DNA from: Eledone cirrhosa
Taxonomy: Eukaryota
Assembly (NCBI GenBank): GCA_964016885.1
Contig: OZ024743.1
Span: 111,786,001 to 111,850,000, forward strand
Reading direction: 5' to 3'
DNA length: 64,000 nucleotides
Of the stretch, positions 1,425 to 64,000 are shown in pieces. Numbering within the stretch: position 1 is the stretch's first letter; the number at the start of each line of letters is the position of its first letter. A program made the position numbers and the translations under genes. The notes beneath the pieces were generated by a model. That model was not told the DNA's origin, did no database searches, and saw only the letters and a list, made by a program, of their open reading frames with translations.

Positions 1425-3600
1425 ACTGATCAGATTAGAGCAAAAATCACGAGCACTCTATCTCAAAACTATTTTTGAAAAGCATAAGAAATGCACAACC
1501 GGTAAAAACTGAAAAGTAAAACTGAATACTAACTAATACTTATTACTAATTTATACTTATTCTTAATTAAACTATCTTTCACTGTTGACTGTCACCACAT
1601 ATTAAGAACCTGAAGATTCCGAAAGCATGAGAGTACTTGTTCAATTAACACTTAGAATGTAATATTCTGTCATACTATTTCATTATAATACCATTATACA
1701 TTTTAAAGGATTGTAAATAAAACGAGTAAATCAGACAAAGTTGGAATTCCTCTTATTAATATAATCTTCTATACACAATCATACACACCCGTGTATATTT
1801 ACCTATCTATCTATATATATATATATATATATATATTATGTGTGTGTGTGTGTTTGTGTGTGTGTGTGAGTACAAATATATATATATATATATATATATA
1901 TATATATATATATATATATATATATATATATATATATATATATGTGTTTGTGTCTTTGTATATGCATATATATATATATATAAACAAATTAACTTGAAAT
2001 AGAGTTTTGAGACGCGAGTGTATTAGGATTCTCATATATAGATAGAGAGCGACAATGTGTGAGAGATATTATTCATGAATTAATAATGAATTAACGAGAA
2101 TACATATTTGTATATTTGTAATATATATATGTGTGTTTATAAATATGTGTGAAGGTGTGGGCTTGTGCGTGCGAGTGCGTATGTGTTGGTGGGTGTGTAT
2201 ATAATCTTTATTTGTTACAGAAATGATTGTATGTCAGACTGTTTAATTTATATATATGCGAGGATGAATATTGGAAATTCATTGAAAACTTATATGTGTA
2301 TATTTGTGTATCATATTTCATATTGTAGTAATAACATCGATTTCTAGTAACTCTGTGATATCACTGGTCAATGTCGATTCGTATCTTGTGTTGAAACTAT
2401 TTTTCTAAGGATGCGTTGAACAAACATTCACTTTCCGTGATATATCATATATATGTAGATTATTTATTTTGTATATTCAAATATGAGGAAACTATCTCAA
2501 TAACAGATTTATATTGTTACCCATAAATTTATATACGCCCGCATATTCATGTATATATAGATAGTAATATGAAATTGAACGTAAATATCGTGACATGAAT
2601 TTGAGCACAAATTCAATCATATGCAGATACAATGTAGGCATAATTTGTACATATTCATCCTGGTAGACAGAGACACGAAAATATATTTTTACTTTTCACG
2701 CAAGCGTATATTGCGATGCAGATCAACGAATAAATATACAACAAGATAGATGTGTACATGTATATCTATTACATATATACAAATAATAAATGTTAAAAAA
2801 TCACTTAGAAGAACGCAACATCTTATCTATATTAGTAAAATACACCTCTTCACAGTTGATGAATTGTTTAACCATATCAGCACTGGGGAAGATAAATACG
2901 CTGTATTTGTCTTCCCGGTAGATATACATATAAAACCGCAGATACTTTTGATATTATTTTTCAGGCATTAGTCAACCCTGTCAGTTAAACCATGACTATT
3001 TCGTCTTATTTTCAGGAATAATGAACCTCAAGATACAGAACTTTCAAATTTCAAAAACGTTCTTCAAGTTATAGAATTTTCAAATTCCAAAGAATGTAAA
3101 ACATTGTAATAGAGAAGTGTTTGAAGTTTATTAGGTTCAATTTCCCTCAAATTTCACAATACCTTCTTCAATTAATGGGTCATGGTGTCATGAAGATTTG
3201 GAAATAGCTTCGAAACAGATATAGTAATCAGTGCAGCATCTCACTTCCACATTCTAGAGTTAGAACGAACCCAGAGAAAAAAATAAATGTCAACCATCCA
3301 TTTGAAATGACAATGTGTTTATTGATAAACATATTGTTATACATACATACATATATATATATATATATACACCCATAACCACACACACACACACACATAT
3401 ATATATATATATATATATATATATATATACACACACACATATATAAATATATATATAGATATACACACACACACACACACTCATATATATATATCCAGGT
3501 AGTCTAACGTAAAGTTACTGTAGATTCACCCAAATGAGCACTCGATATTTAGATTCACGTCTGTAGCGAGGTGTAGAGCTAAACAGAGTGTAAATATAAT

Positions 3601-3860
3601 AATACAAGAATGATTTGCTATGTCTTCGTAAAGTTTATTGATTGGTAACGCGCGTTTCGATAATGATCAGCTCAAAGTTCGATCTATATCGATCTGGCCC
3701 GACTCTGGAATCAAAAACTCGTCATCAACAGAGGTTCGACGAGCTTTTGATTCCAGAGTCGGGCCAGATCGATTCCGATCGAACCTTGAGCTGATCATCA
3801 GCAAAACGCGCGTCATCAATCAATAAACGTAATGAAGGCATGACAAATCGTCCTTGTATT
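3601..3860. repeat. Fold-back palindrome containing a decayed hammerhead-like motif (Penelope-like pLTR-derived)
   Basis: Arms ~3601-3724 and ~3738-3860 are reverse complements. They carry TGACGAG...(G/A)AAACGCGCGT(C/T). The flank 3495-3640 recurs inverted at 59465-59800. Confidence 0.8.
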
Positions 3861-4145
3861 TGTGTTTATATATGTATATGTGTGTGTGTGTGTGTGAGTA
3901 TGTGTGTGAGTATGTGTATGTGTGTGTGTGTGTGTGTGTATGTGTGTGTGTGTGTGTGTGTGTATACAAAAGGCAAATAAACTTATTTTTAAATGAAAAG
4001 ATGCAGCTGATCCATTTGTATATCTTTTTAAAATTATTGCAACATGCAGGGGCATCGGCAGTACATTATTCGACAAACATTAGTACATTTAATAATATGC
4101 AATGATCCTAATAGATCTAAAATCTGGTATTATTCTATATGTAAT

Positions 4146-60508: not shown

Positions 60509-60689
60509 AACTCGTAGGACAGATAGTTTCCGAAGCGATCCCCACCAGAAATAGATTCAAAAATGGCTAAGAATCGTGATTAGTTGCTTACGGCAAGTGG
60601 GCTGGTTGCTATATATGGTTGCCACATATATATCTGTGACTTTGTTTAGTTTGTATATATGTAAATCCGTATATATATATATATATATG

Positions 60690-62371
60690 AAATAAAGTAA
60701 TTAAGTCAAATATTTAAAATTTGGCTTCGTTTATTAAAGATGTACTGCTATATATATTTCGGTGACAGCCATCATTGGCTGTGACCTCTTCAGGCAGTCC
60801 GAATTGGTGTGGGAGAGACAGGTACACATGTTGTTAAAGTGTTTTACTCCGTCAATACTCCGATATGTTCAGCTCCTGGTTGGGTTGTTATTTCTCTGAG
60901 GAACTGGATCATATGAATTCGAACAAACGAATTTCGGCATCGTAGGACACTCTCTCCTCCCATTGGTCAGTTGTGAGAACATTCCTCAGTCAAAAGTCTA
61001 TAGAAATTATTTTCTGAGGCAAGACAATCTGTTGTGGTTGCTTTTGTTAAGTACAGCTGACCTCCTCCCTTGTGTTTATTAGTGTTTTGGGATTAGCTGG
61101 CACGTCAGCCTTAGTTCTACTGCTGCTGTAGCCCCGCTGCAGTAGCCCCTCCACACCGAGCCCAGGGTAAACCACACCCTAAACTTTCACAACCCCAACC
61201 CCTGCCTCGATCGACTCTTATGGCAGCACAGACGTATGCATATGCCCATACATAGATCCTGTTATTTAAGATTGTACATGCACTGATACTTACATATGTG
61301 TGTGTGTGTATGTGTGTGAGTGTGTGTGTGTGTGTGCGTATGTGTGCGCGAATATATATACATATACATTTGGGTGTGTGTGTGCTTGTATAATCTGTGT
61401 GTGTGGGTGGGTGGGTGTGCATATGGGATGCACCTGGGCCCGTGTTTGTGCGTGTGGGCTTGCAACGATGTTGGTTGACCTATACGCATATGTACTCTAT
61501 GCCGAATTAAAAACTGTGGTCCCGTGCATTTCCGGATTTTGACACTCGTGTTATGGTTATTTACACTCCACTCTTGCCTCATTTGCTCTTAAAACATACT
61601 ACCCCATGATAGTGTAATGATCGTAATCCTTTGCATTTCCCGATTCTGACACAGCCTTTATACTTCAGTCAATATTTTCCAAAACTTTCAAACTGTGATA
61701 TTGGCTATAAAAGACACGCACTTTATTCTTCTTTGATATTTGATATTTGATATTGGCTATAACAGACACGCATTTTATTCTATGTTATTTTTTTATTTAT
61801 TTTTTTACTTCTTCATTTTAGTGTATCTTATTTTATTATTATTATTTTTTTTTTATATTTTATTTCTTCAATTTACTTTATCTTATTTCATTATCTGTTT
61901 AGCACCCACCACCACGTGACAGGGTGGTAGGATTGATGCCAACCCACACATACTCATTCTTCTAAAGACAGCAGCAGTAGAACTAAGGCTGACCTGCCAG
62001 CTAACCCCCTAACACCAATAAACACAAGGGAGGTGGTCAGCTGTACTTAACAAAAACAACCACCACAGATTGTCTTGCCTATAGACTTTTGACTGAGGAA
62101 TGTTCTCACAACTGACCAATGGGAGGAGAGAGTGTCCTACGATGCCGAAATTCGTTTGTTCGAATTCATATGATTCCAGTTCCTCAGAGAAATAACAACC
62201 CAACCAGGAGCTGGATATATCGGAGTATTGACGGAGTAAAACACTTTAACAACATGTGTACCTGTCTCTACCACACCAATTCGGACTGTCTGAAGAGGTC
62301 ACAGCTAATATAGCAGTGCATCTTTAATAAACGAAGCCACATTTTAAATATCTGACTTAATTACTTTATTT
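60690..62371. repeat. Long inverted repeat, family B (arms 60690-61129 and 61968-62371, ~840-bp spacer)
   Basis: The arms are highly similar reverse complements. The right arm lacks ~25 nt of the HHR, including GAAA, and ~18 nt near 62080. Confidence 0.92.
60744..60798 (-). ncRNA. Type I hammerhead ribozyme motif, family B (best preserved)
   Basis: Minus strand: ACUGC-CUGAAGA-GGUCACAGCCA AUGA UGGCUGUCACC-GAAA-U AUAU-AUA^-GCAGU. Perfect stem I and a 10-bp stem II with one mismatch. Confidence 0.88.
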
Positions 62372-64000
62372 TACATTACTCCGGAGTAAACAAACCAACC
62401 TGCGTACCTCGTCGAGTGCTCCAATCTGCATTCTGTGGTGTCGGTAAACAACCAACATATACTCAAAATTTATATATATATATATATATATATATATATA
62501 TATATATATATATATATAGAGAGAGAGAGAGAGAGAGAGAGAGAGAGAGAGAGAGAGAGAGAGGGGGGAGAGAATAGGATGATTTGTGGTTCTCGTTCTG
62601 ACACTCTCCAATCAAAACCGGACGAAACTAACTTTGCCTCTCATTCCGAACCGGGTCGATTCATTCTCTATATACTTTCTTCCTTTCACGTCTATCACTG
62701 TCTTATTCTCTGATAAAATAGGTTGTCTTTAGACCTGGAAAATGGATGGCCTCTACGAGCTTTAATATGTGCAAGACATGTCAACGACTCCAACAGAAAT
62801 TACGTGTCCATACATAACTATTTAACAGTAATTTTATGTGAGGTTTTGTTCGATAGAGCCGTTAGATGTTGAGTGATTGATGTTCAGAAATGGATTTCCC
62901 CTCCAAATAAATCGCTATAGAGTAACAATGAAATAAAGCAACTAAAATTATATGTATTCTTAGCCGCGGAATTCGACGAATTCATGTGGCAAACTAGAAC
63001 AGAATATCTGTTAGCAAAACTTCGAAATAAATACAGTATAAGCTTGTTTTCACAAACAAATGATTTCAATAAGCATTTCACACAGTATCAAGTTGCTCTC
63101 TTGGGATGGACACGTATTTAGAAGAACTGGAATTTGGAAGCAATATGCATTGTGTGGATGTAGAGATGTGATGGCATATTCGTTAACCCAAACAGTTGAT
63201 TGAAATGACCAGCACTGCTATAGTCAGTCGTTTAAAGAATGACTGAGTTAGGACAGTGTTACTTGCTTTAAATACCAGTACGTATCGTTATAGTTATTTA
63301 CGTCGGATAGACGAATGTAGCATATTCTGAGAAACTTAGCCGAATTTATGTACCATAGCAAATTTAAGGCAAGGAGAATATTGTTTTAAATATAAGCCTA
63401 GTAATGCTTAGTTAGTGCAGTGAGTTTATAAGCAGCAGTCATTAGGCCTGCAGCTTCCGCTAACTGTAGACAGTAGATTGTCTTGGAGCCTGATGCAGCT
63501 CTATTATTTAACGTAATCGGATTTATCCAGTCATTTTGGCAAGTTTCCCTCGAGGGTGTTTAATTCCAATATTGAATTCATTTTATCCCACATTCCTACC
63601 TTGCATCCGTCTTTAATTCAGTGTTATTGTTATAACTGTACTTTGCCCAGTATAAATATTTACGAACACACACATACACACACACATATATATATATATA
63701 TATATATATATATATATATATATATATATATATATATATATGTGTGTGTGTGTGTGTATGTGTATGCGCGTGCGTGTGCGTGTGCGCGCGCGTGTGTGTG
63801 TGTGTGTGTTTATTTATTTATTTATTTGTGTGAAGAAAAGGTGTTTTTGTATTTGCATATGCTATGCTTTCCTCTGATTGTGTGGTGTTTCATTAAAAGT
63901 TTCTTGCAATTTGTCTTAACTCCTATCACACTGGCCCAATATTCTCTACGTGCTGTTTAATCCAGATAATTCCTATGTTTTCAAATTTTAATCATCCTGT

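Follow-up and report, generated by a model that had tools for sequence, protein, structure and literature searches.

A duplicated hairpin at the insertion ends of Hydra-clade Penelope-like elements in Eledone cirrhosa

The DNA analysed here, referred to as the window, is a stretch of 64,000 nucleotides (nt) from Eledone cirrhosa (GenBank assembly GCA_964016885.1, contig OZ024743.1, positions 111,786,001 to 111,850,000 of the forward strand). It carries an 8-nt motif, GAGYRCTY, which an earlier note, made from the sequence alone, had placed downstream of hammerhead ribozymes (HHRs) of several repeat families. A bulged hairpin of the form RCTC-[stem-loop]-TH-GAGY-RCTY is predicted, of which the motif makes up the 3' strand and flank; the families that bear it are, by protein and end marks, Hydra-clade Penelope-like elements (PLEs). 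The hairpin occurs twice in full-length copies, and the ends of the inserted copies fall just before one hairpin or the other. It is a real cis-element of a known retroelement clade and apparently undescribed. Judged from sequence and by analogy, it probably acts on the element RNA as a candidate binding site that sets the start of the reverse transcriptase (RT), with two such sites per Hydra-clade leader.

Twin hairpins and insertion ends

In full-length copies of families A, A-sub, A2, F, F2, G, E and C, two hairpins, H1 and H2, lie in the stretch that separates the HHR repeat from the ATG of the open reading frame (ORF); family D has both hairpins and an unconfirmed ORF. The spacing of H1 and H2 is 78-131 nt in most full-length references, and a further 12-61 nt lie between H2 and the ATG. 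Clustering of HHR copies gave two classes of end per family, short and long, both running into (TA)n. Regarding the 330 (TA)n-terminated ends, 268 lie at -12 to 0 from the hairpin base and 45 more at +1 or +2 because of TA microhomology (313 in total). Short ends precede H1, with family medians of -1 to -10 nt in 13 of 14 families, and long ends lie 3-11 nt before H2. The known one-sided "tail" of PLEs is therefore, as read from these alignments, the H1-H2 interval. From the short end, the distance to the HHR varies between 37 and 131 nt and that to the 8-mer between 20 and 58 nt; the distance to the stem base is constant despite arms of 16-56 nt, which argues for a folded single strand. The earlier note had proposed a second conserved cis-signal. 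Such a signal is supported, with the insertion end and not the ribozyme as its fixed point of reference, and it is tied to the element end as a base-paired hairpin present twice, not as a linear 8-mer.

The pairing of arms was counted in position-chosen DNA, i.e. the window and 60 stretches picked by position alone (664 kb in total). By alignment, 37 of 38 head-to-head pairs joined one long and one short arm; random pairing of the arms found there (59 long, 56 short) would make about half of the pairs mixed. This count replaces one restricted to arms with an intact HHR, which gave seven long-short and three short-short pairs among ten. Depth steps and loose TA ends near both hairpin bases were also seen in contigs from two runs of unknown kind; these are not counted as evidence, because contig depth is no copy number.

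Among 25 hairpins, the 3' bulge is TT in 12, TC in six, TA in six and T in one. The first lower pair is A-T in 12, G-C in 12 and a mismatch in one, and the second is C-G in 23 and T-A in two. Across the first three upper pairs, 65 of 75 positions are paired, compared with 39.7 in permutations (0 of 20,000 reach 65), and the lower stem is present in the predicted fold of 18 of 21 hairpins. Coding constraint is ruled out as a cause of the motif, which sits in a non-coding leader. In families f5 and f13 (loci L192, L015 and L030), the second lower pair of H1 shows a compensatory change and the 3' flank is different; f5 also carries H2.

Hydra-clade identity and relatives

In the proteins of families A, A2, F, G and E, DKT replaces DKG (as SDKT, ADKT or TDKT). 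An N-terminal RxRW[KR] motif is found in most full-length leaders, GxYRDD is present in the ORFs tied to motif families, and a CxCX5C linker precedes the C-terminal GIY-YIG domain in families A, A2, B and others. Translated ORFs, inspected by eye, show an endonuclease without CCHH, with a single Cys in the GIY-YIG core and with CxxC and CxH near the C-terminus. A hammerhead is predicted in the pseudo-long terminal repeat (pLTR) of the motif families by pattern and stem check, and their insertions sit in (TA)n. The Hydra clade as described (PMC8557442) has the same DKT, RW[KR] and CxCX5C linker, no CCHH and an HHR in the pLTR, as well as the same (TA)n insertion, inverted 5'-truncated arms and one-sided tail. 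The accessible text of that source describes no hairpin, motif or duplication in tail or leader, and its tail length of 30-40 bp differs from the 78-131 nt of the window families and the 55-57 nt of two metagenome loci. The HHR-to-HHR length of family A, about 4.2 kb, exceeds the usual <3 kb of the clade, the 3' region being long. Three ORFs had no significant match in Pfam, which contains no corresponding family.

The N-terminal and RT parts of seven families share 30-58% identity. The earlier note's description of the families as unrelated and unalignable therefore fails at the protein level, where homologous Hydra-clade proteins are encoded, and the hairpin signal was accordingly inherited and not convergent. 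Two other classifications were rejected. Non-LTR retrozymes are tandem non-coding HHR monomers, whereas the motif families trace to ORF-coding elements and occur in the window as dispersed inverted stubs; the CX2-5CxxC linker and CCHH endonuclease of Neptune/Nematis PLEs are not found in the motif families, being confined to the separate element around 1451. The minimal type I hammerheads of metazoan PLEs and non-LTR retrozymes have the same HHR architecture and many truncated copies, and the U3-A8 core variant is common to them and to family G; in their accessible parts the sources concerned (PMC4209133; PMC7229834; bioRxiv 10.64898/2026.07.22.740005) treat the ribozyme, not the structure downstream. 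No description of the hairpin was found by full-text searches or in the accessible text of PMC8557442, PMC11167929, PMC4209133, PMC3846280, PMC7229834 and bioRxiv 10.64898/2026.07.22.740005.

Several peculiarities of family G were observed. The hammerhead in its pLTR (L263) has a U3-A8 core, a long stem III and a predicted monomer fold unlike the minimal HHRs of its sister families. A head-to-tail array of full-length units, with four family G leaders at intervals of 3,542 nt, lies at G000:C1:91476589-91487299. In a tandem satellite at G000:C1:14233532-14254741 (L213-L237, L265-L267), the unit of about 58 nt combines the H1 hairpin of family G with TA-like bases, a structure that could stem from priming repeated at the hairpin or from template jumps there.

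Six new Hydra consensus sequences in the supplement of PMC8557442 were read by eye, and the hairpin or a variant was found in four of them: H1 follows the HHR in Hydra-2_Amil (coral) and Hydra-2_Ajap (sea cucumber), the hairpin occurs twice before the ATG in Hydra-1_Ajap, and hairpin variants are present at both ends in Hydra-1_Crog (copepod). Hydra-1_Obim showed no clear match by eye, and the consensus of Hydra-1_Amil stops before the tail. Regarding nine metagenome loci, both canonical hairpins are present in L301 and L303, one canonical and one variant hairpin in L302 and L308, and H1 in the tail of L307; L309 is partial, and L304-L306 are without the hairpin region. The 3' copy in L303 ends just before H2 and the downstream copy in L302 just before H1. 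A first metagenome scan with a single protein query yielded no relative. In L303 (positions 98-180), a 10-nt direct repeat precedes both hairpins, which suggests that a single module of priming site plus hairpin was duplicated to give H1 and H2.

Motif frequency and features of the window

The exact 8-mer matches the window six times, at 1451, 3536, 23157, 38758, 39560 and 62414, as the earlier note had listed, and its variants are likewise found at 6869, 33679, about 7850, 29017, 34274, 41201 and 59751. The estimate of less than one exact match by chance was borne out (0.53 expected), and six or more matches were found in 0 of 100 shuffles. With one mismatch allowed, 30 matches occur versus 15.8 expected. 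In the whole host genome, which is AT-rich and 3.0 Gb in size, the positional enrichment relative to HHRs was confirmed: an HHR core followed after 55-85 nt by GAGTGCTY was found 28,794 times versus 32 times with a reversed-pattern control. Further patterns of this kind gave 4,524 versus 11 and 5,638 versus 16, and the GAGCACTC (GAGCAC) form 3' of an HHR core on the HHR strand 6,355 versus 23; a few high-copy families supply most of these counts. Among the 85 HHR candidates of the 664-kb sample, the motif lies 40-125 nt downstream in ten, 125-210 nt downstream in two and upstream in one. The motif is thus enriched 3' of the HHR, as had been claimed, yet absent from most HHR copies, because those copies stop short of it. 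A plain genome-wide count of double motifs was not above control (2,793 versus 2,618), because tandem satellites fill both; a second pattern gave 3,829 versus 593, its listed matches being mostly satellites, and a tighter one 1,637 versus 269.

Several motif sites do not have the HHR with which they had been credited. No core was found within 200 nt upstream on the same strand at 3536, 6869, 7850, 34274, 39560, 41201 or 59751; the motif sites without such a core are 5'-truncated arms or copies broken by other inserts, and 41201 is not tied to a family. In the family E element at 3601, only the 3' half of an HHR is visible and no canonical CTGANGA core was found. The site at 1451 does not belong to the pattern: an unrelated HHR, at about 1607, lies some 150 nt downstream of it, and the site reads GAGCACTC on the sense strand of the 3' region, without recognisable HHR, of a separate Neptune/Nematis-type PLE with a CX4CxxC linker. 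On the minus strand at 1451-1483, the antisense of this element reads like the Hydra hairpin (as also in L287-L300), with a wobble lower stem, a 7-bp upper stem and a 3-nt bulge, by chance or inverted capture. An Rfam scan of the window showed no hammerhead among the matches listed (150 of 232), nearly all of which were microsatellite-driven microRNA families, and the output of a repeat search was swamped by (TA)n.

The hairpins located in the window are collected in Table 1. The copies homologous to the hairpin at 21702-21727 fit the rule that ends fall just before a hairpin.

Table 1. Hairpins and associated Hydra-clade insertions in the window (H1 and H2, first and second hairpin; HHR, hammerhead ribozyme)
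Feature	Position	Strand	Remarks
H1, family E, 46-nt stem-loop	3536..3589	-	long arm of the 3513-3855 fold-back
H1 in long arm of family A pair	6853..6876	+	short arm HHR 6707-6667 on -
H1, 3' strand only	7850..7857	-	arm truncated inside hairpin; short partner HHR 7949-7990 on +
H1-like hairpin, new relative to the earlier note	21702..21727	+	5/5 homologous copies among sampled loci end in (TA)n just before it
H1, family B, 1-nt bulge	23141..23164	+	HHR 23069-23090 on +; partner arm HHR 23037-23016 on -
Family A head-to-head insertion	28959..29373	both	long arm (-): tail and HHR 29143-29105; short arm (+): HHR 29267-29308, (TA)n at its end
H1, family A	29017..29040	-	ACTC, upper stem, TC bulge, GAGTGCTT; (TA)n begins 57 nt past motif
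H1, family A, mutated 5' arm	33663..33686	+	decayed HHR core at 33557
H1, family A, long arm	34274..34297	-	short partner HHR 34401-34441 on +
H1, family C	38737..38765	+	variant HHR core at 38596 (+); short partner HHR from 38548 (-)
H1, family D, 56-nt stem-loop	39504..39567	+	upstream HHR displaced by another short repeat
H1-like hairpin, weak upper stem	41185..41208	+	insert of about 150 nt between (TA)n; no blastn match among sampled loci
Decayed H1, family E, both arms mutated	59703..59758	+	upstream part displaced by another short repeat
H1, family F	62378..62421	+	HHR core 62290, GAAA segment deleted; short partner HHR 60793-60757 (-)

Other observations in the window concern neighbouring repeats. 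Family E fold-backs (3601-3855; also L242 and L031) are centred inside the presumed stem II region. At 21201, 60989 and 62093, a second CTGAGGA...GAAA-like stretch without a clear stem II precedes the family F hammerhead by about 200 nt. Abundant HHR families without the hairpin are represented by f6 (about 1607) and f4 (33133) in the window and by f3 (L092) and f7 (L098, short tandem units) elsewhere. A broken DNA-transposon-like ORF pair at 18369-19550 (minus strand) and broken RT fragments at 49018-50742 (plus strand) that resemble long interspersed elements (LINEs) were judged by eye.

Candidate role of the hairpins and rival explanations

Among the functions offered by the earlier note, an RT/endonuclease recognition or priming site is the one that sequence supports best. 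The proposed course of events would be as follows. A dimer of the RT/GIY-YIG protein would nick both strands of a (TA)n tract. The subunit on H1 would prime just upstream of H1 and give the short arm, and the subunit on H2 just upstream of H2, giving the long arm with H1 as its tail. The TA-like bases before each hairpin would likely help priming, and the two 5'-truncated complementary DNAs (cDNAs) would then join head to head. The extra part of the long arm would be the tail with H1, which would explain why the motif had been seen "shortly before the unit ends". Because H2 would never be copied into an end, new rounds of retrotransposition would need tandem or circular RNA.

The closest known case is Poseidon_Ac (PMC11167929), whose RT in vitro extends both target strands, starts at two internal sites that bound the tail and match genomic ends, and needs RNA 3' of these sites; a dimer is predicted. 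Its authors hypothesised an RNA-binding signal 3' of the starts, the binding motif not being identified in the accessible text. Poseidon belongs to another clade, its ORF overlaps the HHR, and GAGYRCTY is absent from the RNA letters of Fig. S1 of that paper.

A number of points weigh against a start-setting role of the hairpins. As regards the families, no H2 was found in family B, the short-end median of family f5 is -28.5 (n=2), and the HHR families f3, f4, f6 and f7 show two end classes but no RCTC/GAGY hairpin, so that the hairpin is not shared by all PLEs (attempts to link an ORF to any of the four gave none). As regards the end mapping, ends were placed on full-length references and the reference nearest a hairpin was chosen per copy, 334 alignment ends outside (TA)n were set aside, many loci had been fetched by motif searches, and TA microhomology blurs the end positions. 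The pairing test is partly circular, the hairpins having been picked with a pairing descriptor, and its families are related: A-T versus G-C mostly tracks H1 versus H2, and the changes that are independent are therefore few. Several upper stems of H2 have only 1-2 bp. In 15 of 21 hairpins the lower folding energy belongs to the antisense strand, so that folding alone is no proof of RNA as the active strand; G-U accounts for only 4 of 74 upper pairs, and a strand-asymmetry test did not favour the RNA strand. Finally, the in vitro work on Poseidon concerns a different clade.

The folding of the antisense strand, which equals or surpasses that of the sense strand, would suit hairpins acting in single-stranded DNA, where the RT would pass through them and the GIY-YIG endonuclease would bind the folded cDNA or second strand and trim it a few bases from the stem. 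Both the sequence and the structure of single-stranded DNA hairpins are recognised by GIY-YIG Ssn nucleases (PMC11893778), recognition by the D. virilis endonuclease is reported to depend on the tail (cited in PMC11167929), and Craig et al. put the tail down to endonuclease resolution (PMC8557442). Trimming is nevertheless judged unlikely: the Ssn enzymes are bacterial single-domain enzymes, not PLE proteins, and the RT start sites of Poseidon mapped in vitro coincide with genomic ends (PMC11167929). The nearness of H2 to the ATG brings in another account, by which the hairpins would serve the ORF, either in its translation (cap-independent entry once the ribozyme has cleaved) or in its transcription from an internal promoter, such as that described inside the pLTR of Penelope (PMC8557442), and annealing of (TA)n primers to the TA-like bases present before both hairpins would give the ends. 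This is quite improbable, because the distance to the ATG varies five-fold whereas that to the end varies little, few ends fall in the other TA-rich stretches of the pLTR, and neither the 37 long-short pairs nor the equal conservation of H1, far from the ATG, is explained.

The earlier note had also considered a splice signal, with which the missing 3' AG after the motif in families C and F disagrees, and a dimerisation site. GAGYRCTC forms a degenerate palindrome, the sense strand shows all four central dinucleotides, and minimal HHRs are thought to need dimers (PMC4209133); the 8-mer could on these grounds dimerise two RNAs or be a double-stranded DNA site for a protein dimer. Such a role is very improbable, since GAGCACTY RNA lacks self-complementarity, the stem is retained but the palindrome lost in variants of f5, f13 and f19, position 4 covaries with the upstream arm, and the linear distance from end to motif is as variable as given above.

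Structured RNA fixes the start or stop of an RT in several systems, namely the RT-binding stem-loops at the 3' ends of LINEs and short interspersed elements, the template-boundary helix of telomerase, and epsilon of hepadnaviruses. Each of these is a single signal, whereas the Hydra clade has two copies of its hairpin, which are placed 3' of an internal start and would act for two strands. Telomerase is the sister enzyme of PLE RTs. A wider and rather doubtful conjecture is that the head-to-head arms and one-sided tail of PLEs record an RNA scaffold with twin hairpins, on which two RTs are loaded at two fixed start sites, one for each nicked strand; each endonuclease-bearing clade would have its own version of the pair, ancestral to the RNA-anchored positioning of the template in telomerase.

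The hairpin bears on how PLE reverse transcription starts and on how inverted arms with a one-sided tail come about. For the Hydra clade, a short duplicated hairpin conserved across animal phyla names a candidate start signal that makes mutational tests possible, and for annotation it predicts element ends and full-length leaders. If the proposed role is true, the hairpins would provide a portable two-site RNA handle for a telomerase-related RT.

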